Origin: Escherichia coli
Lineage (GTDB): Bacteria > Pseudomonadota > Gammaproteobacteria > Enterobacterales > Enterobacteriaceae
Direction: 5' to 3' (one strand)
DNA: 64,000 nt
Assembly: GCF_024298765.1 (NCBI RefSeq)
Contig: NZ_CP101210.1
Part shown: in pieces, positions 3,037 to 36,126 of the stretch
Position numbering within the stretch: position 1 is the stretch's first letter
How the letters are laid out: each line of letters starts with the position of its first letter
The notes under the pieces: model-generated
Database searches by the model: none
Told to the model about the DNA's origin: nothing
What the model saw: only the letters and a program-made list of their open reading frames with translations
Program-made: the position numbers and the translations under genes

Positions 3037-4836
3037 ATGACGACACAGGTCCCACCTTCCGCGTTGCTTCCGTTGAACCCGGAGCAACTGGCACGCCTTC
3101 AGGCGGCCACGACCGATTTAACTCCTACCCAGCTTGCCTGGGTTTCTGGCTATTTCTGGGGCGTGCTCAACCAGCAGCCTGCTGCGCTTGCAGCGACGCC
3201 AGCGCCCGCCGCAGAAATGCCGGGTATAACTATTATCTCCGCTTCGCAAACCGGCAATGCGCGCCGGGTTGCTGAAGCATTACGCGATGATTTATTAGCG
3301 GCAAAACTGAACGTTAAGCTGGTGAACGCGGGCGACTATAAATTCAAACAAATCGCCAGCGAAAAACTGCTCATCGTGGTGACGTCAACGCAAGGGGAAG
3401 GGGAACCGCCGGAAGAAGCCGTCGCGCTGCATAAGTTCCTGTTCTCCAAAAAAGCGCCAAAGCTGGAAAACACTGCATTTGCCGTGTTTAGCCTCGGCGA
3501 TAGCTCTTATGAATTTTTCTGCCAGTCCGGGAAAGATTTTGACAGCAAGCTGGCGGAACTGGGCGGTGAACGCCTGCTCGACCGTGTCGATGCCGACGTT
3601 GAATACCAGGCTGCTGCCATCGAGTGGCGCGCCCGCGTGGTTGATGCGCTTAAATCGCGTGCGCCTGTCACGGCACCTTCGCAATCCGTCGCTACTGGCG
3701 CGGTAAATGAAATCCACACCAGCCCGTACAGCAAAGACGCGCCGCTGGTGGCGAGCCTTTCGGTTAACCAGAAAATTACCGGGCGTAACTCTGAAAAAGA
3801 CGTTCGCCATATCGAAATTGACTTAGGTGACTCTGGCCTGCGTTACCAGCCGGGTGACGCGCTGGGCGTCTGGTATCAGAACGATCCGGCACTGGTGAAA
3901 GAACTTGTCGAACTGCTGTGGCTGAAAGGCGATGAACCTGTCACCGTTGACGGCAAAACGCTGACCCTGAGCGAAGCGCTACAGTGGCACTTTGAACTGA
4001 CCGTCAACACCGCGAATATTGTTGAGAACTACGCCACGCTTACCCGCAGCGAAACGCTGCTGCCGCTGGTGGGCGATAAAGCGAAGTTACAGCATTACGC
4101 CGCGACCACGCCGATTGTTGACATGGTGCGTTTCTCTCCGGCGCAACTGGATGCCGAAGCGCTGATTAACCTGCTGCGCCCGCTGACCCCGCGCCTGTAT
4201 TCCATCGCCTCCTCGCAGGCGGAAGTCGAGAACGAAGTACACGTCACCGTTGGCGTGGTGCGTTACGACGTGGAAGGCCGCGCCCGTGCCGGTGGTGCCT
4301 CCAGCTTCCTTGCGGACCGCGTGGAAGAAGAGGGCGAAGTCCGCGTATTTATCGAACATAACGACAACTTCCGCCTGCCAGCCAACCCAGAAACCCCGGT
4401 GATTATGATTGGCCCAGGCACCGGCATCGCGCCGTTCCGCGCCTTTATGCAGCAACGCGCCGCCGACGAAGCGCCGGGGAAAAACTGGCTGTTCTTTGGC
4501 AACCCGCACTTTACGGAAGATTTCCTCTACCAGGTGGAATGGCAGCGCTACGTCAAAGAGGGCGTGCTGACGCGTATCGATCTTGCCTGGTCGCGCGATC
4601 AAAAAGAAAAAATTTACGTACAAGACAAACTGCGCGAACAGGGCGCGGAGCTGTGGCGCTGGATCAATGACGGTGCCCATATTTATGTCTGCGGCGACGC
4701 TAATCGCATGGCGAAAGACGTTGAGCAGGCACTTCTGGAAGTGATTGCCGAATTTGGTGGCATGGACACCGAAGCGGCGGATGAATTTTTAAGTGAGCTG
4801 CGCGTAGAGCGCCGTTATCAGCGAGATGTCTACTAA
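3037..4836 (+). CDS. cysJ: sulfite reductase [NADPH] flavoprotein alpha subunit
   Basis: 599-aa ORF; recognised CysJ sequence; flavodoxin and FAD/NADPH domains; followed by overlapping cysI (TAATG). Confidence 0.95.
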
Positions 4837-6621: not shown

Positions 6622-7356
6622 ATGTCCAAACTCGATCTAAACGCCCTGAACGAACTGCCGAAGGTAGATCGCATTCTGGCGCTGGCGGAAACTAACGCCG
6701 AACTGGAAAAACTGGACGCTGAAGGCCGCGTTGCCTGGGCGCTGGATAATCTGCCCGGTGAATATGTACTTTCTTCCAGCTTTGGCATTCAGGCGGCGGT
6801 GAGCCTGCATCTGGTGAATCAGATTCGCCCGGATATTCCGGTGATCCTCACCGATACCGGCTATCTGTTCCCAGAAACCTACCGCTTTATTGACGAGTTA
6901 ACGGACAAACTCAAGCTCAACCTGAAAGTGTACCGCGCTACCGAAAGCGCCGCCTGGCAGGAAGCGCGCTACGGTAAACTGTGGGAGCAGGGTGTTGAGG
7001 GGATTGAGAAGTACAACGAGATCAACAAAGTCGAACCGATGAACCGGGCGCTGAAAGAACTGAATGCGCAAACCTGGTTTGCTGGCCTGCGCCGTGAACA
7101 ATCCGGCAGCCGCGCCAATTTACCGGTGCTGGCAATTCAGCGTGGCGTATTTAAAGTGCTGCCGATTATCGACTGGGATAACCGAACTATTTATCAGTAC
7201 CTGCAAAAACATGGCCTGAAATATCACCCATTATGGGACGAAGGATATTTATCGGTCGGTGATACCCATACAACCCGTAAATGGGAACCCGGCATGGCGG
7301 AAGAAGAAACGCGTTTCTTTGGCTTAAAAAGAGAATGTGGGTTACACGAAGGGTAA
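6622..7356 (+). CDS. cysH: phosphoadenosine phosphosulfate (PAPS) reductase
   Basis: Track ORF 6583..7356; 244-aa protein from [17 protein letters not shown] recognised as CysH; ATG at 6622 preceded by GAGGAA. Confidence 0.9.
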
Positions 7357-7410: not shown

Positions 7411-7524
7411 TGCGAGCAGCATTCCGGCATTTAAAGGTGAACATCGCAGGGAGAATTAACAGGTATAGAATGGAGTTGGGTGCTTGAGGCTGTCTGGCGT
7501 TAAGCATTCGCGAGGTTCCAGATG

Positions 7525-7582
7525 GACAAAAGCCCCAGGCGATATTTCTATCAACCTGAGGCCAGCGTTCGAACCTAAGCAA
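7525..7582 (-). ncRNA. Sok-like antisense RNA of a hok/sok-type locus (predicted)
   Basis: On the minus strand: candidate -35 TTGCCT (plus 7611-7616) and -10 TAACAT (plus 7588-7593) with 17-bp spacing, then a ~57-nt transcript ending in hairpin GCCUCAGG...CCUGGGGC plus CUUUUGU. Size matches the Sok antisense RNA family; boundaries inferred. Confidence 0.4.
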
Positions 7583-7619
7583 TTCGAATGTTAGTCTCTT
7601 CTTTGCAGGGAGGCAAGAC

Positions 7620-7772
7620 ATGCTGACAAAATATGCCCTTGTGGCAATCATCGTACTGTGTTGTACAGTACTGGGATTCACGCTGATGGTAGGCGACTCG
7701 TTGTGTGAGTTGAGTATCAGAGAACGTGGTATGGAGTTTAAGGCAGTTCTCGCTTACGAATCGAAGAAGTAG
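7620..7772 (+). CDS. Hok/Gef family small membrane toxin (type I toxin)
   Basis: 50-aa ORF below the track length cutoff, read by hand: [50 protein letters not shown]. Hydrophobic N-terminal helix plus the conserved DSLCEL...AYES pattern of Hok family toxins; RBS GGGAGG upstream. Confidence 0.7.
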
Positions 7773-7798: not shown

Positions 7799-8009
7799 TA
7801 CTGAATTGTGATGGTTTGGTCTCCTGCACCCTTTTTTAATTTATATTGTTTATGTGAATATTATGCCTATGTTTATTATTTATATATATTATGGATGAAA
7901 ATCATTTAATTATTCACAATGTAAATATTTTATTGAAAGATATATGTCACAGATAATTTTTAATATATGCGTGAATATCCTTTAAGTTTTACTGAAGGAT
8001 AAAAATATT

Positions 8010-10667
8010 GTGACTTTCTTTTATTTCTGGGGAAAAACCCGACGCGGCGAGAAAGACGGGGGCGAAGACTATCACCTTCTTTGCTGGCATTCGCTGGATG
8101 TAGCCGCGATGGGCTATTTAATGGTTAAAAGCAATTGCTTCGGACTGGCTGGCTATTTTCGTCAATTAGGTTTCGCTGACACGGAGCTGGCAGCACAATT
8201 TTTCGCCTGGCTGCTGTGCTGGCACGATATTGGAAAATTTGCCCGCTCTTTTCAGCAACTTTACCTGCACCCACAACTCAAGGTTCCGGAAGGCGCAAGA
8301 AAGAATTACGAAAAGATCTCTCATTCAACGCTGGGCTACTGGTTGTGGAACCATTATTTAAGTGAATGTCAGGAGTTGCTTCCTTCATCTTCACTCTCTC
8401 CGCGCAAACTTAAACGGGTGATGGAGATGTGGATGCCCATGACTACCGGGCATCATGGTCGACCCCCTGAGCGTATGGATGAACTGGATAATTTTCTGCC
8501 TGAAGACAAAGGTGCCGCACGAGATTTTCTCCTTGCAATCAAGGTACTGTTTCCGCTCATAGAGATCCCCACATTCTGGGATGATGACGAGGGCGTTGAA
8601 CTTATAAAACAACTTTCCTGGTATATCTCTGCAACCGTCGTACTTGCAGACTGGACGGGATCGTCAACGCGATATTTTCCACGCGTTGCACAGGCAATGG
8701 ATATTGAAGATTACTGGCAGAAAACTTTAGTTCAGGCTCAAAACGCCTTAACCGTCTTTCCTCCAAAAGCAGAAAGCGCGCCTTTCACCGGAATTAATAC
8801 GCTGTTTCCTTTTATTGAGAATCCGACACCGCTACAGCAAAAGGTGCTGGATCTGGATATCAGCCAGCCGGGACCACAGTTATTTATTCTGGAGGATGTA
8901 ACCGGCGCAGGTAAAACAGAAGCGGCGCTTATCCTGGCGCACAGGTTGATGGCTGCGGGGAAAGCGCAGGGTTTGTTTTTTGGCCTGCCAACAATGGCAA
9001 CGGCCAATGCCATGTACGATCGACTGGTCAAAACCTGGCTTGCTTTCTATTCGCCAGAGTCCCGCCCCAGCCTGGTGCTGGCACACAGTGCCCGAACATT
9101 AATGGACCGCTTTAATGAATCACTCTGGTCCGGTGATTTAGTCGGGTCAGAAGAACCGGATGAACAAACGTTCAGTCAGGGATGTGCGGCCTGGTTTGCC
9201 GACAGTAACAAGAAGGCGCTACTGGCTGAAATTGGCGTCGGCACGCTGGATCAGGCGATGATGGCTGTGATGCCGTTCAAACATAATAATCTGCGGCTTC
9301 TGGGACTGAGTAACAAAATCCTGCTGGCTGATGAGATCCATGCCTGTGACGCTTACATGTCATGCATTCTTGAAGGGCTGATCGAGCGGCAGGCGCGTGG
9401 CGGAAACAGCGTCATTTTGCTTTCTGCCACGTTATCTCAACAGCAGCGCGACAAACTCGTCGCCGCCTTTGCGCGTGGTATAGAGGGCCAGCAAGAAGCT
9501 CCGTTGCTGGAAAAGGATGATTACCCCTGGCTGACGCACGTTACGAAATCCGATGTGCATTCACACCGGGTAGCGACGCGCAAAGACGTTGAGCGCAGCG
9601 TGAGTGTGGGTTGGCTTCATAGCGAACAAGAGTGTATTGCGCGTATCGAATCGGCGGTAAGTCAGGGGAAATGTATCGCCTGGATCCGAAATTCTGTCGA
9701 TGACGCCATCCAGGTTCATCGTCAGTTACTTGCCCGCGGCGTCATTCCTGCTTCCAGCCTTTCACTTTTTCATAGCCGCTTTGCTTTTAGCGATCGCCAG
9801 CGAATTGAAACGGAGACGCTGGCACGCTTTGGTAAAGAAGACTGTTCACAGCGTGCCGGAAAAGTCCTCATTTGTACTCAAGTCCTGGAGCAGAGCGTTG
9901 ACTGCGACCTGGACGAAATGATTTCCGACCTTGCCCCTGTTGATTTACTGATCCAGCGGGCGGGGCGATTACAGCGGCATATCCGCGATATTAATGGTCT
10001 GTTAAAGCGTGACGGAAAAGACGAGCGTTCCCCTCCTGAATTTCTGATTCTGGCTCCCGTCTGGGACGACTCTCCGGGTGACGAATGGTTTGGCAGCGCC
10101 ATGCGTAACAGTGCATATGTCTACCCCGATCATGGGCGAATCTGGCTGACGCAGCGTGTGCTGCGTGAGCAAGGCGCTATTCAGATGCCACACGCAGCCC
10201 GGCTTCTTATTGAATCAGTCTACGGTGAAGACGTGGCAATGCCGGAAGGATTTGCCCGCAGTGAGCAGGAGCAAGTGGGCAAATATTACTGCGATCGCGC
10301 AATGGCTAAAAAGTTTGTCCTGAACTTCAAGCCTGGCTATGCCGCCAATATCAACGATTACCTTCCGGAAAAGCTGTCGACACGTCTGGCTGAGGAATCT
10401 GTTTCCCTGTGGCTGGCTACCTGTATTGACGGTGTGGTGAAGCCTTATGCCACCGGTGCTCACGCATGGGAAATGAGCGTTGTCAGAGTGCGTCGAAGCT
10501 GGTGGAAAAAACATCGGGATGAGTTTTCTTTACTGGAAGGGGATGCGTTCAGGCAGTGGTGCATTGAACAGCGGCAAGATCCGGAGATGGCAAACGTGAT
10601 TTTAGTCACCGATGACGAAAGTTGCGGGTATTCGGCTATGGAAGGATTGACTGGCAAGGTTGGTTGA
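8010..10667 (+). CDS. cas3: CRISPR-associated helicase/nuclease Cas3 (type I-E)
   Basis: 885-aa ORF starting at GTG 8010 (AAGGA 10 nt upstream); HD-nuclease-like N-terminus (H..LDVAA, HDIGK) and DEAD/DEAH helicase motifs (GAGKTEAA, DEIH); first gene of the cas operon. Confidence 0.9.
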   Translation: MTFFYFWGKTRRGEKDGGEDYHLLCWHSLDVAAMGYLMVKSNCFGLAGYFRQLGFADTELAAQFFAWLLCWHDIGKFARSFQQLYLHPQLKVPEGARKNYEKISHSTLGYWLWNHYLSECQELLPSSSLSPRKLKRVMEMWMPMTTGHHGRPPERMDELDNFLPEDKGAARDFLLAIKVLFPLIEIPTFWDDDEGVELIKQLSWYISATVVLADWTGSSTRYFPRVAQAMDIEDYWQKTLVQAQNALTVFPPKAESAPFTGINTLFPFIENPTPLQQKVLDLDISQPGPQLFILEDVTGAGKTEAALILAHRLMAAGKAQGLFFGLPTMATANAMYDRLVKTWLAFYSPESRPSLVLAHSARTLMDRFNESLWSGDLVGSEEPDEQTFSQGCAAWFADSNKKALLAEIGVGTLDQAMMAVMPFKHNNLRLLGLSNKILLADEIHACDAYMSCILEGLIERQARGGNSVILLSATLSQQQRDKLVAAFARGIEGQQEAPLLEKDDYPWLTHVTKSDVHSHRVATRKDVERSVSVGWLHSEQECIARIESAVSQGKCIAWIRNSVDDAIQVHRQLLARGVIPASSLSLFHSRFAFSDRQRIETETLARFGKEDCSQRAGKVLICTQVLEQSVDCDLDEMISDLAPVDLLIQRAGRLQRHIRDINGLLKRDGKDERSPPEFLILAPVWDDSPGDEWFGSAMRNSAYVYPDHGRIWLTQRVLREQGAIQMPHAARLLIESVYGEDVAMPEGFARSEQEQVGKYYCDRAMAKKFVLNFKPGYAANINDYLPEKLSTRLAEESVSLWLATCIDGVVKPYATGAHAWEMSVVRVRRSWWKKHRDEFSLLEGDAFRQWCIEQRQDPEMANVILVTDDESCGYSAMEGLTGKVG

Positions 10668-10764: not shown

Positions 10765-12327
10765 ATGAACTCGTTTTCACTTCTGACAACCCCGTGGTTG
10801 CCCGTTCGTTTTAAAGACGGAACAACAGGCAAACTGGCGCCAGTCCATCTGGCGGATGAAAATGTTGTCGATATAGCTGCGCCGCGGGCAGATCTCCAGG
10901 GGGCGGCATGGCAGTTTTTGCTGGGGCTACTACAAACCAGCTTCGCGCCAAAAGATCATCGTCGTTGGGATGATATCTGGGAAGACGGACTGGAAGCTGA
11001 AAAGCTACGGGAGGCATTGCTGCCATTAGAGCACGCTTTCCAGTTTGGGCCAGATTCCCCTTCATTTATGCAGGATTTTGAGGCGCTCACGGGAGATAAA
11101 GTTCCGGTCGCTTCGCTACTGCCTGAGATTCCCGGCGTTCAAACAACAAAGTTTAATAAAGACCACTTTATCAAGCGTGGTGTAACGGAACACCTGTGCC
11201 CACAGTGTTCTGCACTAGCCTTGTTCTCTCTACAGTTAAATGCGCCGTCAGGCGGCAAAGGCTATCGCACCGGCTTACGCGGCGGTGGGCCGATGACTAC
11301 TCTGATTGAATTACAGGAATATCAGGGCAATCAACAAACTCCCTTGTGGCGCAAAATGTGGCTCAACGTGATGCCGCAGGATGAAGCCGACTTACCGCTA
11401 CCCAAAAAATTTGACGGTCTGGTTTTCCCCTGGCTTGGCCCGACGCGCACCAGCGAACTGGCCGGTGCGGTGGTAACCGATGATCAGGTTAATAAACTCC
11501 AGGCGTACTGGGGAATGCCGCGGCGTATTCGTATTGATTTTAATACCACGACAGTCGGCAACTGCGATATTTGCGGCGAGCAGAACGACGCGCTCCTGAG
11601 CCTGATGACGACCAAAAATTACGGTGCGAATTATGCCATGTGGCAGCATCCTTTAACGCCTTACCGTATACCACTTAAAGAGGGTGGCGAGTTTTACTCG
11701 GTCAAACCACAACCGGGCGGTTTAATCTGGCGCGACTGGTTAGGCCTTATCGAAACGGGTAAGTCAGAAAACAATACGGAACTTCCTGCACTGGTGGTGA
11801 AACTCTTTAATGCCAGCAGTCTGAAACAGGCAAAAGTGGGCCTATGGGGATTTGGTTATGATTTTGACAACATGAAAGCGCGCTGTTGGTACGAACACCA
11901 TTTCCCGCTACTGCTCAATAAAAAAGAAGGCCAGATACCGAAGCTGCGGCTGGCTGCGCAAACGGCTTCACGGATTCTGAGTCTGTTACGGAGTGCATTG
12001 AAAGAAGCATGGTTCTCCGATCCAAAAGGTGTAAGGGGTGATTTCAGTTTTGTGGATATCGACTTCTGGAACAAAACTCAGCATCGCTTCCTGAGGTTAG
12101 TGCGCCAAATTGAAGAAGGTCAGGATGCGGATGAATTACTCGGCAAATGGCAAAAGGAAATTTGGTTATTCGCGCGTCAGGATTTTGACGAGCGTGTATT
12201 CACTAATCCTTATGAGCCCGTTGATTTGAAACGCGTCATGACCGCGCGCAAGAAATATTTTACAACATCGGCGGAGAAGCAAAGTGCTAAAGCCGCCAGG
12301 GAGAAAAAGCAGGAGGCTGCTGAATGA
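10765..12327 (+). CDS. casA: Cascade large subunit Cse1/CasA (Cas8e)
   Basis: Track ORF 10696..12327; likely start ATG 10765 (MNSFSLLTTPWLPV) preceded by GAGAGG; position and size match the Cascade large subunit. Confidence 0.8.
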   Translation: MNSFSLLTTPWLPVRFKDGTTGKLAPVHLADENVVDIAAPRADLQGAAWQFLLGLLQTSFAPKDHRRWDDIWEDGLEAEKLREALLPLEHAFQFGPDSPSFMQDFEALTGDKVPVASLLPEIPGVQTTKFNKDHFIKRGVTEHLCPQCSALALFSLQLNAPSGGKGYRTGLRGGGPMTTLIELQEYQGNQQTPLWRKMWLNVMPQDEADLPLPKKFDGLVFPWLGPTRTSELAGAVVTDDQVNKLQAYWGMPRRIRIDFNTTTVGNCDICGEQNDALLSLMTTKNYGANYAMWQHPLTPYRIPLKEGGEFYSVKPQPGGLIWRDWLGLIETGKSENNTELPALVVKLFNASSLKQAKVGLWGFGYDFDNMKARCWYEHHFPLLLNKKEGQIPKLRLAAQTASRILSLLRSALKEAWFSDPKGVRGDFSFVDIDFWNKTQHRFLRLVRQIEEGQDADELLGKWQKEIWLFARQDFDERVFTNPYEPVDLKRVMTARKKYFTTSAEKQSAKAAREKKQEAAE

Positions 12328-12860
12328 GTATTGTAAAAGAGGAGCACAAAGCCACGCTGCGTAAATGGCACGAAGAGTTGCAGGAAAAACGCGGCAATCG
12401 TGCCAGTCTGCGGCGTAGCACAACGGTTAATGATGTTTGTCTGTCAGAAGGGTTTCGTTCTCTGCTGATGCAGACCCACACGTTGTGGAAAATTGAATCA
12501 CAGGAGTGGCGTTTTACCGCACTGGCGCTGGTTGCCGCCGTTGCCGCCAATGTAAAAGCCATTGATGAACGGCAGCCTTTTGCCGCGCAGTTGGCGGCGG
12601 TAATGTCTGAGGGGCGTTTTACTCGCCTGTCGGCAGTCAAAACGCCGGATGAATTACTGCGCCAGTTACGTCGCGCGGTCAAATTATTAAATGGTTCCGT
12701 CAATCTTATCTCTTTGGCAGACGATATTTTCCGCTGGTGCCAGGAGAGCGACGATCTGCTCAATCATCACCGCCGCCAGCAGCGGCCAACAGAATTTATC
12801 CGTATCCGCTGGGCGCTGGAATATTACCAGGCTGGCGACGCCGATAACGAACAAAATTAA
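12324..12860 (+). CDS. casB: Cascade small subunit Cse2/CasB (Cas11)
   Basis: 178-aa ORF; start overlaps the cse1 stop (ATGA); AGGAGG RBS; position in operon. Confidence 0.8.
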   Translation: MSIVKEEHKATLRKWHEELQEKRGNRASLRRSTTVNDVCLSEGFRSLLMQTHTLWKIESQEWRFTALALVAAVAANVKAIDERQPFAAQLAAVMSEGRFTRLSAVKTPDELLRQLRRAVKLLNGSVNLISLADDIFRWCQESDDLLNHHRRQQRPTEFIRIRWALEYYQAGDADNEQN

Positions 12861-13940: not shown

Positions 13941-14687
13941 ATGAGCCAATATTTGATTTTTCAGCTTCATGGGCCAATGGCATCCTGGGGCGTCGATGCC
14001 CCTGGCGAAGTGCGTCATACCCATGAACTGCCTTCGCGCTCAGCATTGCTGGGGCTGCTGGCTGCCGGGGTAGGGATTCGGCGTGATGATACCGAACGAT
14101 TAAACGCGTTTAACCGCCACTATTCACTGGTGGTTTGCGCCAGCCGTAACCCGCGCTGGGCACGGGATTATCACACGGTCCAGATGCCAAAAGAGGTGCG
14201 TAAAGCGCGTTATTTCAGCCGTCGCGAAGAGTTGAGCGCCCCTGATCTTCTGAGCGCGATTATCTCCCGGCGCGACTACTACACCGATGCCTGGTGGATG
14301 GTGGCGGTGGCAACAACCCCCGATGCGCCTTACAGCCTTGAACAGTTGCAGGACGGTTTACGTCATCCGGTTTTTCCGCTTTATCTGGGGCGAAAAAGTC
14401 ATCCGCTGGCGTTACCACTTGCGCCGTTACTGCTCGAAGGCAACGCGTCTGATGTCTTACGTAACGCATACCAACAGTATCAGGATAGTTTCCGCGAACT
14501 GAAAGTCTCACTCCCGAAACTTCAGGATGAATGCTGGTGGGAAGGGGAACACGACGGCCTGGTCGCGAGCAAAATATTACGTCGCCGGGATGTTCCTTTA
14601 AATCGTCAGCAGTGGCTGTTTGGGGAACGCACCATCAATCAGGGGCCGTGGCTCAGCAAGGAGGAACCATGTACCTCTCAAGAATAA
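13941..14687 (+). CDS. casD: Cascade subunit Cas5e/CasD
   Basis: 248-aa ORF; N-terminus MSQYLIFQLHGPMASWG recognised as the Cas5e family. Confidence 0.85.
   Translation: MSQYLIFQLHGPMASWGVDAPGEVRHTHELPSRSALLGLLAAGVGIRRDDTERLNAFNRHYSLVVCASRNPRWARDYHTVQMPKEVRKARYFSRREELSAPDLLSAIISRRDYYTDAWWMVAVATTPDAPYSLEQLQDGLRHPVFPLYLGRKSHPLALPLAPLLLEGNASDVLRNAYQQYQDSFRELKVSLPKLQDECWWEGEHDGLVASKILRRRDVPLNRQQWLFGERTINQGPWLSKEEPCTSQE

Positions 14688-15315: not shown

Positions 15316-15319
<4 letters not shown>
14669..15319 (+). CDS. casE: CRISPR RNA endoribonuclease Cas6e/CasE
   Basis: Track ORF 14531..15319; likely start ATG 14669 (MYLSRITL) with AAGGAGG RBS; glycine-rich C-terminal GCGLM loop typical of Cas6e. 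Confidence 0.85.
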
Positions 15320-16529
<1,210 letters not shown>

Positions 16530-16625
16530 GTTATCCGTTCTTTAAAAATAAGGAAATGTTTTAATTTAGTTGGTAGATTGTTGATGCGGAATAAATTTGT
16601 TTAAAAACAGTTATGTATGCTTAGT
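16530..16625 (+). promoter_or_regulatory. CRISPR leader (AT-rich, array promoter and integration site)
   Basis: About 96-bp AT-rich segment between the cas2 stop and the first repeat. Confidence 0.6.
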
Positions 16626-17935
16626 GTGTTCCCCGCGCCAGCGGGGATAAACCGCATTGAAAACATTGCCTTTATTTTATTTTTTGGTGTTCCCCGCGCC
16701 AGCGGGGATAAACCGGTGCCGCCGCTGGGCACTTCCTTCCCGTGAGTGTGTTCCCCGCGCCAGCGGGGATAAACCGCCCTGATAGCGTCCAGTTGAATGC
16801 GCGCCCGCGTGTTCCCCGCGCCAGCGGGGATAAACCGGCAGGCACGGGCAATATCAGACTCGGTCAAAGGTGTTCCCCGCGCCAGCGGGGATAAACCGCT
16901 CGGTTGTTTTCATATTACCGGCCTGCCACTGTGTTCCCCGCGCCAGCGGGGATAAACCGACAATATCCCGGACCGGGCGCTGATTTAGTCAGTGTTCCCC
17001 GCGCCAGCGGGGATAAACCGCGGACGGTGGGAATATAGAAAATCCGTCCACCGTGTTCCCCGCGCCAGCGGGGATAAACCGTTATACTCTTTTCATCGAC
17101 TAAGGAGGGGAGGGTGTTCCCCGCGCCAGCGGGGATAAACCGCAATAACGCAGCATCCAGGAAGCTGTTTCCGCGTGTTCCCCGCGCCAGCGGGGATAAA
17201 CCGCGATCGGTGAAGAGGTCCGCGAAATACTCACTGTGTTCCCCGCGCCAGCGGGGATAAACCGGCGATAGTTGATTCAGCCGCGCCAGCGAATGTGTGT
17301 TCCCCGCGCCAGCGGGGATAAACCGGGGCCGCCGCGAATTTACACACGATTCAATACGTGTTCCCCGCGCCAGCGGGGATAAACCGAACTGGTGCGCGAC
17401 GGCTGGCTAACAAAACGAGTGTTCCCCGCGCCAGCGGGGATAAACCGCGTGGCTGCGCTGGCCGTTGCAGCAGTTTGATGTGTTCCCCGCGCCAGCGGGG
17501 ATAAACCGCGTAAACGCCCCGTCGCCATTAATTTCGGGGTGTGTTCCCCGCGCCAGCGGGGATAAACCGTGGGATGAGCAAATAACGTCGTTTCCTAGAA
17601 AGTGTTCCCCGCGCCAGCGGGGATAAACCGCCGCCGTGCCAGTGATCCTCATACGGCCTGTTGTGTTCCCCGCGCCAGCGGGGATAAACCGAAATTAAGA
17701 ACGGCGTAAACGACGGCAGCATGGTGTTCCCCGCGCCAGCGGGGATAAACCGGTGATGATTCAGAGCAGACATTAGCCCGCGCTGTGTTCCCCGCGCCAG
17801 CGGGGATAAACCGGGTAAAAACACGGTCTGAACCGACATTCATGTGTGTTCCCCGCGTCAGCGGGGATAAACCGGACGCACTGGATGCGATGATGGATAT
17901 CACTTAGAATTCCCCGCCCCTGCGGTAGAACTCCC
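16626..17935 (+). CRISPR. Type I-E CRISPR array: 21 repeats of GTGTTCCCCGCGCCAGCGGGGATAAACCG plus a degenerate terminal repeat, 21 spacers of 32 nt
   Basis: Repeats counted by hand at 16626, 16687, 16748 ... 17846 with an exact 61-bp period. Repeat 21 (17846-17874) carries one substitution (GCGTCAGCG); the terminal repeat 17907-17935 (GAATTCCCCGCCCCTGCGGTAGAACTCCC) matches about 18/29. Confidence 0.97.
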
Positions 17936-26820: not shown

Positions 26821-27960
26821 ATGAGCGCGGGAAGCCCAAAATTCACCGTTCGCCGCATTGCGGCTTTGTCACTGGTTTCGCTATGGCTGGCAGGCTGTTC
26901 TGACACTTCAAATCCACCGGCACCGGTCAGCTCCGTTAATGGCAATGCGCCTGCAAATACCAATTCTGGTATGTTGATTACGCCGCCGCCGAAAATGGGG
27001 ACGACGTCTACAGCGCAGCAACCGCAAATTCAGCCGGTACAGCAGCCACAAATTCAGGCTACTCAACAACCGCAAATCCAGCCAGTACAGCCAGTAGCTC
27101 AGCAGCCGGTACAGATGGAAAACGGACGCATCGTCTACAACCGTCAGTATGGGAACATTCCGAAAGGCAGTTATAGCGGCAGTACCTATACCGTGAAAAA
27201 AGGCGACACACTTTTCTATATCGCCTGGATTACTGGCAACGATTTCCGTGACCTTGCTCAGCGCAACAATATTCAGGCACCATATGCGCTGAACGTCGGT
27301 CAGACCTTACAGGTGGGTAATGCTTCCGGTACGCCAATCACTGGCGGAAATGCCATTACCCAGGCCGACGCAGCAGAGCAAGGAGTTGTGATCAAGCCTG
27401 CACAAAATTCCACCGTTGCTGTTGCGTCGCAACCGACAATTACGTATTCTGAGTCTTCGGGTGAACAGAGTGCTAACAAAATGTTGCCGAACAACAAGCC
27501 AACTGCGACCACGGTCACAGCGCCTGTAACGGTACCAACAGCAAGCACAACCGAGCCGACTGTCAGCAGTACATCAACCAGTACGCCTATCTCCACCTGG
27601 CGCTGGCCGACTGAGGGCAAAGTGATCGAAACCTTTGGCGCTTCTGAGGGGGGCAACAAGGGGATTGATATCGCAGGCAGCAAAGGACAGGCAATTATCG
27701 CGACCGCAGATGGCCGCGTTGTTTATGCCGGTAACGCGCTGCGCGGCTACGGTAATCTGATTATCATCAAACATAATGATGATTACCTGAGTGCCTACGC
27801 CCATAACGACACAATGCTGGTCCGGGAACAACAAGAAGTGAAGGCGGGGCAAAAAATAGCAACCATGGGTAGCACCGGAACCAGTTCAACACGCTTGCAT
27901 TTTGAAATTCGTTACAAGGGGAAATCCGTAAACCCGCTGCGTTATTTGCCGCAGCGATAA
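26821..27960 (+). CDS. nlpD: murein hydrolase activator lipoprotein NlpD (LysM + M23 domain)
   Basis: 379-aa ORF with lipoprotein signal (LAGCS), Q/P-rich repeat linker and LysM/M23 regions; the rpoS promoter is known to lie within this gene in E. coli. Confidence 0.9.
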
Positions 27961-29135: not shown

Positions 29136-29543
29136 CTATTTGCTCATCATCTTGCGCACCAGCTGCATAAACAGCTCCTGCTCTTCTCCACTCAAACGCC
29201 CCAAAAATTCCTCATCCACACTGTCACCTATCGGTATCGCCGCAGCAAGTATCTTTTCGCCTTCGGCAGTCAGCCAGACAAAGCGTCGCCGCTTGTCAGC
29301 GGCGTCATGTTCACGTCTGACTAAGCCACGATTTTCCATTCTTGCCAACATTTCTGCCAGCGTTGCTTTGGTGCTGACTGCTGCTTCTATCAGTGCCACC
29401 TGTTCGATACCAGGCTTATCAGCAATGGCGCGCATCACCGCGTACTGTGGTTTGGTCAGGTCAGGTAACTCGTGCTGCCAGCGAGCTGTATGCTGCTGAA
29501 AAAGCTGTCGTAACTGATGGAACGCTTTATTTCGTAACGCCAT
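29136..29543 (-). CDS. hosA: MarR/SlyA-family transcriptional regulator HosA
   Basis: Track ORF 29136..29576; likely 135-aa protein from MALRNKAFHQLRQLF; winged-helix MarR-like sequence; recognised as the SlyA homologue found next to rpoS in non-K-12 E. coli. Confidence 0.75.
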   Translation of the reverse strand: MALRNKAFHQLRQLFQQHTARWQHELPDLTKPQYAVMRAIADKPGIEQVALIEAAVSTKATLAEMLARMENRGLVRREHDAADKRRRFVWLTAEGEKILAAAIPIGDSVDEEFLGRLSGEEQELFMQLVRKMMSK

Positions 29544-29658
29544 GTAAACTCCGGGCAAACTATCTGCCGCTATCATAGCGGTTTTTCAGTGACGAAGAAG
29601 ATGTTGTTACTTTTCAGCGCTTGCCGCGATGAAAACAGAGGCGTATTTTAATAATAAC

Positions 29659-29672
29659 GTTCGTATACGAAC
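29659..29672. promoter_or_regulatory. Perfect 14-bp palindrome GTTCGTATACGAAC upstream of ecdB (candidate MarR-type operator)
   Basis: Perfect dyad read from the sequence, 17 bp upstream of the ecdB start, in the hosA/ecdB divergent region. Confidence 0.45.
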
Positions 29673-29689
29673 AATTTAGAGAGTAAGCA

Positions 29690-30283
29690 ATGAAACTGAT
29701 CGTCGGGATGACAGGGGCTACCGGTGCGCCTCTTGGTGTGGCATTACTGCAAGCGCTGCGGGAGATGCCGAATGTCGAGACTCATCTGGTGATGTCGACG
29801 TGGGCGAAAACCACCATTGAACTGGAAACGCCTTACAGCGCCCGCGATGTTGCTGCCCTCGCAGACTTCAGCCATAACCCGGCGGATCAGGCGGCGACCA
29901 TCTCCTCAGGTTCCTTTCGTACCGACGGCATGATCGTTATTCCGTGCAGTATGAAAACGCTCGCCGGTATCCGTGCCGGTTACGCCGATGGCCTGGTGGG
30001 GCGCGCGGCGGACGTCGTGCTCAAAGAAGGCCGCAAACTAGTGCTGGTGCCGCGTGAAATGCCGCTTAGCACCATCCATCTCGAAAATATGCTCGCACTT
30101 TCACGCATGGGCGTGGCGATGGTGCCGCCGATGCCTGCCTTTTATAACCATCCCGAAACGGTAGATGACATTGTCCACCACGTGGTAGCCCGCGTGCTGG
30201 ATCAATTTGGCCTCGAACATCCCCACGCCAGGCGCTGGCAAGGATTGCCGCAGGTCCGGAATTTTTCTCAGGAGAATGAATAA
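29690..30283 (+). CDS. ecdB: UbiX-family flavin prenyltransferase (Pad1-like; partner of a UbiD-type decarboxylase)
   Basis: 197-aa ORF MKLIVGMTGATGAPLG... typical UbiX/Pad1 fold; symbol from memory of E. coli O157-type annotation (also called pad1/kpdB). Confidence 0.8.
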   Translation: MKLIVGMTGATGAPLGVALLQALREMPNVETHLVMSTWAKTTIELETPYSARDVAALADFSHNPADQAATISSGSFRTDGMIVIPCSMKTLAGIRAGYADGLVGRAADVVLKEGRKLVLVPREMPLSTIHLENMLALSRMGVAMVPPMPAFYNHPETVDDIVHHVVARVLDQFGLEHPHARRWQGLPQVRNFSQENE

Positions 30284-31710
30284 TGGCATTTGATGATTTA
30301 CGCAGCTTTTTACAGGCGCTTGATGACCACGGCCAGTTACTGAAAATCAGCGAAGAGGTGAACGCGGAACCGGATCTGGCAGCCGCAGCCAACGCCACCG
30401 GGCGTATCGGCGACGGCGCGCCCGCGCTTTGGTTTGATAATATTCGCGGCTTTATCGATGCCCGCGTGGCAATGAACACCATCGGTTCCTGGCAGAACCA
30501 CGCGATTTCCCTCGGCCTGCCGCCAAACACCCCGGTTAAAAAACAGATTGATGAGTTTATCCGCCGCTGGGATAACTTCCCCATTGCCCCGGAGCGCCGC
30601 GCCAATCCAGCCTGGGCGCAGAACACCGTCGATGGCGACGAGATCAACCTGTTCGATATTCTGCCACTGTTTCGTTTAAACGACGGTGATGGCGGTTTCT
30701 ATCTCGACAAAGCGTGCGTGGTTTCCCGCGATCCGCTTGATCCGGATAACTTCGGCAAGCAGAACGTCGGCATCTACCGTATGGAAGTGAAGGGTAAGCG
30801 TAAGCTCGGTCTGCAACCGGTGCCGATGCACGATATCGCCCTGCATCTGCATAAAGCGGAAGAGCGCGGTGAAGATCTGCCGATTGCAATCACGCTCGGT
30901 AACGATCCGATCATCACCCTGATGGGGGCCACGCCGCTGAAATACGATCAGTCTGAGTATGAAATGGCAGGCGCGCTGCGCGAAAGCCCGTACCCGATCG
31001 CCACCGCCCCGCTGACCGGTTTTGATGTGCCGTGGGGCTCGGAAGTGATCCTCGAAGGGGTCATCGAAAGCCGTAAACGCGAAATCGAAGGGCCGTTCGG
31101 TGAGTTTACCGGGCACTACTCCGGCGGGCGTAATATGACCGTCGTGCGCATTGATAAAGTCTCTTATCGCAGCAAACCCATTTTTGAATCGCTCTATCTC
31201 GGGATGCCGTGGACGGAAATCGACTACCTGATGGGGCCAGCCACCTGCGTGCCGCTGTATCAGCAACTGAAAGCCGAGTTCCCGGAAGTGCAGGCGGTGA
31301 ACGCCATGTACACCCACGGCCTTCTGGCGATTATCTCCACCAAAAAACGCTACGGCGGCTTTGCCCGCGCGGTGGGCCTGCGTGCGATGACCACGCCGCA
31401 CGGTCTGGGCTACGTGAAGATGGTGATTATGGTCGATGAAGACGTTGATCCGTTCAACCTGCCGCAGGTGATGTGGGCGCTCTCCTCGAAAGTGAACCCG
31501 GCAGGGGATTTGGTGCAGTTGCCGAATATGTCCGTGCTGGAACTCGACCCCGGCTCAAGCCCGGCCGGTATCACCGACAAGCTGATTATCGACGCCACCA
31601 CGCCTGTCGCTCCGGACAACCGTGGTCACTACAGCCAGCCGGTGGTGGATTTACCGGAAACCAAAGCCTGGGCTGAAAAACTGACCGCTATGCTGGCCGC
31701 ACGTCAATAA
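30283..31710 (+). CDS. ecdC: UbiD-family (prenyl-FMN dependent) aromatic acid decarboxylase, catalytic subunit
   Basis: 475-aa ORF, start overlapping the ecdB stop; recognised as the UbiD family (yclC-like). Confidence 0.8.
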   Translation: MAFDDLRSFLQALDDHGQLLKISEEVNAEPDLAAAANATGRIGDGAPALWFDNIRGFIDARVAMNTIGSWQNHAISLGLPPNTPVKKQIDEFIRRWDNFPIAPERRANPAWAQNTVDGDEINLFDILPLFRLNDGDGGFYLDKACVVSRDPLDPDNFGKQNVGIYRMEVKGKRKLGLQPVPMHDIALHLHKAEERGEDLPIAITLGNDPIITLMGATPLKYDQSEYEMAGALRESPYPIATAPLTGFDVPWGSEVILEGVIESRKREIEGPFGEFTGHYSGGRNMTVVRIDKVSYRSKPIFESLYLGMPWTEIDYLMGPATCVPLYQQLKAEFPEVQAVNAMYTHGLLAIISTKKRYGGFARAVGLRAMTTPHGLGYVKMVIMVDEDVDPFNLPQVMWALSSKVNPAGDLVQLPNMSVLELDPGSSPAGITDKLIIDATTPVAPDNRGHYSQPVVDLPETKAWAEKLTAMLAARQ

Positions 31711-31720
31711 GGAGAACAAG

Positions 31721-31957
31721 ATGATTTGTCCACGTTGTGCCGATGAACAGATTGAAGTGATGGCGAAATCGCCGGTAAAAGATGTCTGGATGGTCTACCA
31801 GTGCCAGCATTGCCTCTATACCTGGCGCGATACCGAACCGCTACGCCGCACCAGCCGCGAACATTATCCCGAAGCGTTCCGCATGACGCAGAAAGATATT
31901 GATGACGCGCCGATGGTGCCGAGCATCCCGCCGCTGCTGGCGGAAGGTAAGCGCTAA
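31721..31957 (+). CDS. ecdD: small subunit of the phenolic acid decarboxylase (YclD-like, Cys-rich)
   Basis: 78-aa ORF with CxxC...CxxC spacing, directly downstream of the UbiD-like gene. Confidence 0.65.
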   Translation: MICPRCADEQIEVMAKSPVKDVWMVYQCQHCLYTWRDTEPLRRTSREHYPEAFRMTQKDIDDAPMVPSIPPLLAEGKR

Positions 31958-34867: not shown

Positions 34868-36126
34868 GATAAAAACTCTCTTTGGGCTCGTGAAAAAAAG
34901 GCTTCATCACCGAAGTTGCCAGATTTAAGGGCGAGTGAGACAGGCTTATCCAGTGCGTTTACCCACGGCACGCCGGGGGAAATGGTTGGGCCAATATGAA
35001 ACCCTTTTATTCCCAGGCTCTGTGTGACTACGCCGGAGGTCTCACCGCCTGCGACAATAAAGCGTGTCACGCCTTCCGCTGCTAACCGCGCCGCTAGTTG
35101 AGAAAACAGTGTTTCTACTGCCTGACTGGCTTTTTGTGCACCGTATTGCTGTTGAATTGCTGCCAATGCGTCAGTGCTGGCGGTGGCAAAAACCAGTGGA
35201 GCAAGTACACTTTCCTGGCCCAGAACCCACTCTGCCAGCTCGTGTGCATAAGCGGCCAGAGTTTCGGTTGAGAGGCAGCGTGCCACATCAACCTCACGGG
35301 CTGGTGCAATTTGACGGTAATGTGCCACCTGGCGGTTGGTCATTTGAGAGCATGAACCGGAGAGCACTACGCCGCGCCCAGCGAGCGGACGCCCTGCTTC
35401 GCGAGCCTGGTTACCGTTTTCTTGCGCCCACTGCCGGGCCAGGCCAATCGCCAGACCAGAACCGCCCGTTACCAGTGGGGCATCGCGCAAGGCTTCCCCC
35501 TGAATTTCCAGATGGTGTTCGGTCAGCGCATCAAGCACCGCGTAGCGATAGCCCTCTTGCTGTAAGCGAGCCAGCTCCTGACGAACGGCATCCACACCTT
35601 GTTCGAAAACATGTGCCGAAACGACGCCGCAGCGCCCTGTGGACTGCGCTTCAACCAGACGGGGAAGATAGCTGTCGGTCATGGGATTTACCGGGTGATG
35701 GCGCATTCCGGATTCGGCCAGCAGTTGATTCATTACGAACAAATACCCCTGATAAACCGTACGTCCGTTGACCGGCAGGGCCGGAGAGAAGACCGTAAAC
35801 GGCGTGTCGAGAGCATCCATTAATGCATCGGTAACCGGGCCGATATTACCTTTCGCAGTACTGTCGAAAGTAGAGCAGTATTTGAAATAGATCTGTTTGC
35901 AACCTTGCTGTTGCAACCAGCTCAGAGCCGCCAGCGATTGCTGTGTGGCTTCAACCACCGGACAGGAACGCGTTTTCAGGCTGATCACCAGTGCGTCGAT
36001 TGCTTCCGGCATTTTACCTGTTGGAACACCGTTAATTTGTACCGTTGGTAGACCGTTTTCCACCAGAAAACTGGCGATATCCGTCGCGCCGGTAAAATCA
36101 TCGGCGATAACGCCAATCTTGATCAT
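34864..36126 (-). CDS. ygbK: four-carbon acid sugar kinase family protein YgbK
   Basis: 420-aa ORF, N-terminus MIKIGVIADDFTGATD typical of the DUF1537 kinase family; synteny. Confidence 0.8.
   Translation of the reverse strand: MIKIGVIADDFTGATDIASFLVENGLPTVQINGVPTGKMPEAIDALVISLKTRSCPVVEATQQSLAALSWLQQQGCKQIYFKYCSTFDSTAKGNIGPVTDALMDALDTPFTVFSPALPVNGRTVYQGYLFVMNQLLAESGMRHHPVNPMTDSYLPRLVEAQSTGRCGVVSAHVFEQGVDAVRQELARLQQEGYRYAVLDALTEHHLEIQGEALRDAPLVTGGSGLAIGLARQWAQENGNQAREAGRPLAGRGVVLSGSCSQMTNRQVAHYRQIAPAREVDVARCLSTETLAAYAHELAEWVLGQESVLAPLVFATASTDALAAIQQQYGAQKASQAVETLFSQLAARLAAEGVTRFIVAGGETSGVVTQSLGIKGFHIGPTISPGVPWVNALDKPVSLALKSGNFGDEAFFSRAQREFLS

Follow-up and report, generated by a model that had tools for sequence, protein, structure and literature searches.

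The CRISPR1 locus

The stretch of DNA analyzed here, called the window, covers 64 kb of the Escherichia coli contig NZ_CP101210.1 and carries a CRISPR array. On the chromosome it is placed between cas2 and iap, and cysH is found on the side of cas3, a position that identifies the locus as E. coli CRISPR1 (CRISPR2.1). It is a conventional type I-E array. The repeat, spacer length, leader, cas operon, location, origin of the spacers in mobile DNA and polar growth were all found to be those of this type, and nothing contradicts the identity. The array and its leader comprise the following features, with lengths in nucleotides (nt):

16530..16625, plus strand: AT-rich leader, 96 nt, with 27% G+C at 16500-16599; homologue of the K-12 CRISPR-I leader
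16626..17935, plus strand: CRISPR array, in which 21 repeats and 21 spacers are followed by a degenerate terminal repeat, recognized from its periodicity and from the CRISPR annotation in the near-identical strain MSHS 133
17021..17052, plus strand: spacer 7, with a 6-bp internal stem and a 16-nt loop
17846..17874, plus strand: repeat 21, with the single substitution C13>T in the tetraloop; 20/21 repeats are perfect
17875..17906, plus strand: spacer 21, the oldest or "anchor" spacer, matching its K-12 CRISPR-I counterpart, also the oldest there, at 30/32 positions
17907..17935, plus strand: degenerate terminal repeat of 29 nt, GAATTCCCCGCCCCTGCGGTAGAACTCCC; homologue of the K-12 terminal repeat

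A scan of the window for the repeat, GTGTTCCCCGCGCCAGCGGGGATAAACCG, returned 20 mismatch-free copies at positions 16626 + 61 × i (i = 0..19). Together with the substituted copy that follows them, the 29-nt unit is present 21 times between 16626 and 17874 with an exact period of 61 bp. Twenty-one copies in register at a fixed period make a chance origin impossible. No further copies of the repeat were found elsewhere in the window on either strand. A preliminary description of the stretch, made from its letters alone, had placed the array at 16626-17935 and had claimed an exact 61-bp periodicity, a point-mutated repeat near the distal end and a degenerate terminal repeat. The coordinates proved to be exact, the periodicity was borne out and the two aberrant repeats were found at 17846-17874 and 17907-17935. 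The same description had counted 21 different spacers, and pairwise comparison in register agreed with this; each spacer is 32 nt long, all are distinct, and no pair was alike at 16 or more of the 32 positions. Folding of the repeat gave a hairpin at -15.2 kcal/mol (z = -3.2) with 7 bp in the stem and 4 nt in the loop, and the C13>T change in repeat 21 left the hairpin unaltered with the same minimum free energy of -15.2 kcal/mol. No Rfam family was found within the array at gathering thresholds.

Open reading frames (ORFs) of 81-103 amino acids (aa), called mechanically, cross the array on the minus strand and could be taken to indicate that the repeats are a coding or other tandem repeat and not a CRISPR. 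These ORFs consist of repeat copies and are spurious. The intervening 32-nt units are mutually unrelated, several of them match mobile DNA as described below, and the locus carries a CRISPR annotation in every relative. A protein-coding or other tandem repeat is therefore excluded.

The CRISPR-I locus of K-12 occupies the same position between cas2 and iap, its repeat is identical to that of the window at 28/29 positions, and its leader aligns to the window leader without gaps and with conserved blocks. Spacers are 32 nt in both, except that two K-12 spacers are 33 nt. K-12 has 13 spacers compared to 21 in the window, and only its oldest spacer is related (30/32); the terminal repeats are homologous. 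Such a conserved anchor is usual for the trailer end. CRISPR1 of Salmonella enterica, also type I-E, was matched with the whole array as query, through repeat similarity only. We take it to have the same repeat sequence and gene order as the window array, while species and spacers differ.

The cas genes are located upstream of the array on the same strand in the order cas3-cse1-cse2-cas7-cas5-cas6e-cas1-cas2. The families were assigned by curated NCBIfam cut-offs, and all eight type I-E families pass:

7967..10667, plus strand: cas3 (HD nuclease and helicase); NCBIfam cas3_HD and cas3_core pass on the ORF at 8010-10667
10765..12327, plus strand: cse1/casA, large subunit of Cascade and reader of the protospacer adjacent motif (PAM); TIGR02547, 606.6 bits against a cut-off of 70; start taken from the identical MSHS 133 annotation
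12324..12860, plus strand: cse2/casB; TIGR02548, 105.4 bits
12875..13930, plus strand: cas7/casC; TIGR01869, 445 bits
13941..14687, plus strand: cas5/casD; TIGR01868, 159.6 bits
14669..15319, plus strand: cas6e/casE, endonuclease of the CRISPR RNA precursor (pre-crRNA); TIGR01907, 286.9 bits; start from the MSHS 133 annotation
15316..16239, plus strand: cas1e, the spacer integrase; TIGR03638, 380.7 bits; start from the MSHS 133 annotation
16236..16529, plus strand: cas2e; TIGR01873, 133 bits
17956..18993, minus strand: iap, which bounds the trailer side of the locus; NF007568, 702.7 bits

The operon is of a different sequence variant from that of K-12. On K-12-type models it scored below cut-off, with 105.7 bits for Cse1 against a cut-off of 576 and 421.9 bits for Cas3 against 569. 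The genes cysDNC lie beyond iap and cysJIH beyond cas3.

Targets of the spacers and their PAMs

The preliminary description regarded the spacers as being of unknown origin. This no longer holds for seven of the 21 (1, 4, 14, 16, 17, 19, and 20), for which we could assign protospacers, all in prophages, phage-plasmids or plasmids. The PAM is given as the trinucleotide 5' of the protospacer:

16655..16686, plus strand: spacer 1; 32/32 to the 3' end of a CI-like repressor gene of a lambdoid prophage, and also found in IMG/VR contigs L013 and L020; PAM ATG
16838..16869, plus strand: spacer 4; 32/32 to a site between a DUF4224 gene, which adjoins an integrase gene, and the next annotated gene, on the same strand of a lambdoid prophage of the spacer 1 family; as PAM, ~12 genomes and 4 viral contigs have ATG, most of the ~424 genomes that carry the 3-mismatch allele have CTG, and some have CTT
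17448..17479, plus strand: spacer 14; 32/32 to a tail gene of a P2-like prophage; PAM ACG
17570..17601, plus strand: spacer 16; 30/32 (mismatches at positions 11 and 21) to virulence plasmids of Salmonella Dublin, Gallinarum and Pullorum, at a site with no annotated gene or sizeable ORF; PAM ATG
17631..17662, plus strand: spacer 17; a weak match of 30/32 (E = 0.02) to the gene for the spike protein in a STEC379 prophage that has baseplate genes; PAM ATC
17753..17784, plus strand: spacer 19; 32/32 to a small DUF6890 gene before the tape-measure gene in the P2-like prophage of spacer 14; PAM ATG
17814..17845, plus strand: spacer 20; 32/32 to the lxr/upf94.2 gene of P7, SJ46 and ~100 P1-like plasmids (phage-plasmids); PAM CTG in ~99 plasmids; one plasmid (CP088811.1) and P1 have ATG

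Several of the sites were found close together on one strand. The sites of spacers 1 and 4 lie on the same strand 3.6-4.9 kb apart, and those of spacers 14 and 19 lie on the same strand of one P2-like prophage of strain 40EC, 4 kb apart. Two spacers that are present only in relatives of the window array had comparable targets, spacer b matching the lambdoid prophage (PAM ATG) and spacer j the P2-like prophage (PAM AGG). In one record (L022) the sites of spacers 4, 1, and b are found at 3433-3464, 7001-7032, and 10577-10608, spanning ~7 kb on one strand of one lambdoid prophage, and on another (L023) the sites of spacers 19 and 14 are found at 7001-7032 and 11041-11072 on one strand of the P2-like prophage. 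The spacer 4 site was present in ~440 E. coli genomes, one O25b:H4-ST131 among them, and in 11 IMG/VR contigs. Phage P1 itself has 4 mismatches to spacer 20.

Judged from these matches, the array is an inherited record of encounters with temperate elements, namely one family of lambdoid prophages, a P2-like prophage, phage-plasmids of the P1/P7 kind and a Salmonella plasmid of IncF type. Spacers of E. coli CRISPR1 were previously found to target prophages almost exclusively, in arrays that are stable, and P1, RCS47, and SJ46 are the known phages most targeted by them (Dion et al., 2024; PMC10910852). Both the types of target and the stability of the array in the window agree with that study.

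The scans of IMG/VR, which used the first 29 nt of a spacer with N at every 6th position, returned no match for spacers 2, 3, 5, 6, 7, 8, and 12, and the species-representative genomes of GTDB returned none for spacers 2 and 7. For spacer 7 no protospacer was found in the IMG/VR contigs, GTDB genomes or metagenomes scanned; its sole metagenome match is another E. coli array. When the whole array was compared to the INPHARED phages at E <= 1 only spacer 20 was matched, the rest being repeat-based matches to mislabelled array fragments. In PLSDB, searched with the spacers alone, only spacers 16 and 20 were matched, besides matches of spacer 21 to chromosomes that are entered there as plasmids. 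A search for degenerate matches (at least 23/32) of all 21 spacers along the full length of the two targeted prophages, those of E24377A and 40EC, returned only the known perfect hits, and shuffled spacers also reached 23.

Near-copies of two spacers were found in other E. coli lineages, again within CRISPR arrays. Spacer 5 (16899-16930) is present there in a 30/32 version in ~125 genomes, and spacer 12 (17326-17357) shares an identical stretch of 24 nt with arrays in ~150 genomes. Such resemblance suggests that the same targets may have been sampled repeatedly.

The internal hairpin that had been noted in spacer 7 is present as a 6-bp stem, while the suggested likeness to a terminator did not hold. 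The spacer folds at -9.7 kcal/mol (z = -1.9) and 10/200 shuffles folded as well. The loop is 16 nt, the 3' side is occupied by a repeat instead of a U tract, and the spacer was not flagged by a terminator scan, and spacer 7 was accordingly rejected as a terminator.

A comparison of the spacers with their own genome, proposed in the preliminary description as a check for self-targeting, was carried out on the 64-kb window, and no match exceeded the shuffled controls; the best spacer match was 22/32, while shuffled spacers reached 23/32. In the closest complete genomes, MSHS 133, 104, and E166, no protospacers for spacers 1-19 were found outside their own arrays. About 10% of E. coli genomes hold a spacer that is also present elsewhere in the same genome (PMC10910852), and an array directed at its host, by self-targeting or by a regulatory CRISPR RNA (crRNA), instead of at mobile elements is therefore conceivable in the species. 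With no match in the window above the controls, with the array alone accounting for spacers 1-19 in the closest genomes, and with every identified target in a prophage, phage-plasmid or plasmid, we consider such a role extremely improbable here.

The prevailing PAM is ATG. It is present at 5/7 targets in at least one natural allele, where 1/64 would be expected by chance. An AAG-type PAM had been anticipated, and what was mainly seen is thus the other half of the AWG consensus. According to Musharova et al. (2019; PMC6568314) Cas1-Cas2 of K-12 prefers AAG, and the preference for ATG seen with natural spacers of E. coli is ascribed there to Cas1-Cas2 variants other than that of K-12. The present targets document ATG as the PAM for a non-K-12 cas variant.

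The PAM was found to be polymorphic at the targets of spacers 4 and 20, which belong to unrelated elements. At both, the allele with ATG is rare and the allele with C at position -3 (CTG) is dominant. In K-12 a C at -3 disrupts activity, and CTG blocks direct interference and allows priming with just a single spacer (Xue et al., 2015; PMC4678831). The pattern of rare ATG and common CTG could result from PAM escape or from clonal sampling. Many of the sampled genomes with the spacer 4 site seem to be one clone, and ST131-type strains recur among the matches listed; the spacer 4 alleles moreover differ by three adjacent substitutions, where one change would suffice for escape. The clustering on one strand of the sites of spacers 1, 4, and b, and of those of 14 and 19, resembles primed adaptation. 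That the PAM alleles and the clustering together represent footprints of real CRISPR pressure in nature, by escape and priming, is quite unlikely in our judgment. If it were true, and no effect of sampling, type I-E CRISPR of E. coli would have acted on temperate elements in nature, although it is reputed to be silent. The ATG/CTG polymorphism at two independent targets is in this respect a small lead on the activity of E. coli CRISPR in nature.

Spacer order in related strains

We compared the array to those in 5,426 complete RefSeq genomes, and spacer order was compared in seven relatives (181.1, MSHS 133, 104, GPEC60-33-648, 20Ec-P-124, SCU-171, and 21F61). Arrays with several of the window's spacers were found in ~70 of the 5,426 genomes. 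Strains 181.1, MSHS 133, 104, GPEC60-33-648, and 20Ec-P-124 agree with the window in locus, leader and repeat as well as in the spacers and their order. The array is already represented in public genomes, and is real but ordinary and already known. Its exact combination of spacers was found in none of the complete genomes; the best match was MSHS 133 with 96.8% identity over the array and its flanks, and the discrepancy is trivial.

Strain 181.1 carries all 21 spacers of the window in the same order, as 1 2 3 4 b c 5 6 a 7-13 d 14-19 19 20 21. The window array lacks five of these units, namely b, c, a, d, and the second of the two spacer 19 units. The other six strains carry other subsets of the larger spacer set; the array of MSHS 133, for example, is without spacer 4 and includes one additional spacer, a. 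In all seven relatives spacer 1 is first and spacers 20 and 21 are last, and the arrays differ in internal presence and absence of spacers and in one duplication. The comparison of spacer order with related strains, which had been called for, therefore gave the same order with internal gaps only. Because all relatives share their ends and differ by internal loss, the window array is an internal-deletion derivative of a longer array of the 181.1 type. The tandem duplicate of spacer 19 in 181.1 indicates that repeat-mediated duplication has taken place besides deletion in this lineage of arrays.

The surroundings of the array are highly conserved. Compared to MSHS 133 the first 48.9 kb of the window differ by one single-nucleotide polymorphism (SNP), at 14334, and by the section of the array with spacers 4-6 only. 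The region 39001-64000 was 100% identical to MSHS 133, E166, 104, and several avian O78:H4 strains.

The preliminary description had held that the array grew from its leader end, and several observations support this. The AT-rich leader lies on the cas2 side with the I-E operon upstream, and the spacer and terminal repeat at the opposite end are those that resemble the oldest ones of K-12. A sister array on the metagenome contig SKEC01039028.1 (L032, positions 1-1157) has spacers a, 7-12, and 15-21 in common with the lineage and, in place of spacers 1-6 of the window, carries four unrelated ones at its leader end. A shared trailer with different leader spacers supports growth from the leader end. 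The C13>T variant is found in the first two repeats of the sister array, and in the window only in the last full repeat.

Spacer 1 had been singled out as leader-proximal, AT-rich and presumably the newest. It is leader-proximal and it is AT-rich (22% G+C), the latter because it derives from the AT-rich end of the phage repressor gene. It is not recent, as it is fixed in all seven complete-genome relatives. With the leader-proximal spacer fixed, all spacers already present in relatives and only internal repeat-spacer units lost compared to them, the array is not undergoing extension in this lineage.

State of the cas operon and activity of the locus

The cas3 gene was found to have one T extra in the T run at 7987-7990, a single 1-nt insertion in codon 7, compared to the intact 899-aa allele of EC21Z-151. 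The frame from the annotated ATG (7967) ends at a stop at 8000, after 11 codons. The identical cas3 genes of MSHS 133 and FDAARGOS_1287 are labelled frameshifted (pseudogene) in RefSeq. A GTG at 8010, preceded by AAGGA at a spacing of 10 nt, reopens a cas3 ORF of 885 aa in which the HD and helicase domains are complete, and which starts at about the position where K-12-type Cas3 starts. Near-full-length Cas3 could still come from this GTG, and to judge from the reading frames the lesion may be silent or may abolish interference. The frameshift makes the interference capacity of the lineage uncertain and bears on whether its CRISPR memory can be used.

If the locus operates by the mechanism established for its family, the array would be transcribed from the AT-rich leader on the plus strand, and Cas6e would cut at the 3' base of the 7-bp hairpin of each repeat to give crRNAs of 61 nt. 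Each crRNA would consist of an 8-nt 5' handle, AUAAACCG, the 32-nt spacer and the hairpin; of this the analysis covered the geometry of the hairpin and the handle. Cascade loaded with the crRNA would locate protospacers by the AWG motif plus the seed, Cas3 would degrade the bound target, and Cas1-Cas2 would insert new spacers at the leader end.

In the laboratory H-NS is known to silence the I-E operons of E. coli. From this silencing together with the frameshift in codon 7 of cas3 we infer that the locus is probably largely dormant. Overall, we consider it very likely that the window carries a standard CRISPR1 array, an inherited record of encounters with temperate elements, static in its lineage and probably largely dormant.

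Several observations weigh against this explanation. No targets were found in the collections searched for 14/21 spacers. A scan of the leader for the sigma-70 consensus flagged no promoter, although a simple scan of this kind says little. The rules by which PAMs were judged stem from experiments in K-12, while the operon of the window is another I-E variant (Cse1 105.7 vs 576). Finally, the cas3 frameshift may be harmless, as the 885-aa ORF keeps both domains and has AAGGA upstream.

The last point touches on whether the locus could be a fully active defence, one that interferes now and still acquires spacers, with Cas3 made from the GTG at 8010 and the operon expressed in nature. All cas ORFs are open and above their family cut-offs, and the ORF from the GTG contains its domains in full and is preceded by a plausible ribosome-binding site. 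The lack of protospacers for spacers 1-19 outside the arrays of MSHS 133, 104, and E166 fits an exclusion of the targeted prophages, and the presence of several spacers against one strand of one prophage is priming-like. These arguments are countered by the identity of spacer 1 in 7/7 complete-genome relatives, whose differences are internal losses, and by the pseudogene status of the cas3 allele in RefSeq. Stable arrays and laboratory silencing are furthermore reported for E. coli (PMC10910852). We therefore regard present activity as unlikely.

The opposite situation, a dead relic in which the frameshift in cas3 put an end to interference and the array is only inherited vertically and eroded by deletion, is possible and somewhat doubtful. 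In its favor are the stop after 11 codons that the 1-nt insertion in codon 7 brings about, and relatives that are distinguished only by deletions and one duplication. The commonest natural alleles of two perfect targets also have a C at -3, a base with which direct interference is blocked in K-12 (PMC4678831). Against this, over ~8.5 kb the seven other cas genes are intact and so is the cas3 ORF of 885 aa, and 20/21 repeats are perfect. More lesions would be expected of a long-dead operon than the one SNP outside the array that separates the window from MSHS 133 in the first 48.9 kb. Compared to either extreme, a static and largely dormant array remains the explanation that we favor.

Some features were observed outside the CRISPR locus proper. 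A toxin-antitoxin module of the hok/sok type is located between cysH and cas3, with an Rfam match to sok at 7478-7635 (111.7 bits) and a Hok/Gef coding sequence at 7620-7772. Tandem repeats of 24 nt were found within the genes nlpD (27019-27083, 2.7 copies) and otnK (36011-36057, 2.0 copies). Strains of E. coli differ in the interval between rpoS and mutS. In the window this interval contains, just downstream of rpoS at 29136-31957, a gene for a MarR-family regulator and a three-gene cluster for hydroxyarylic acid decarboxylase (subunits B, C, and D).

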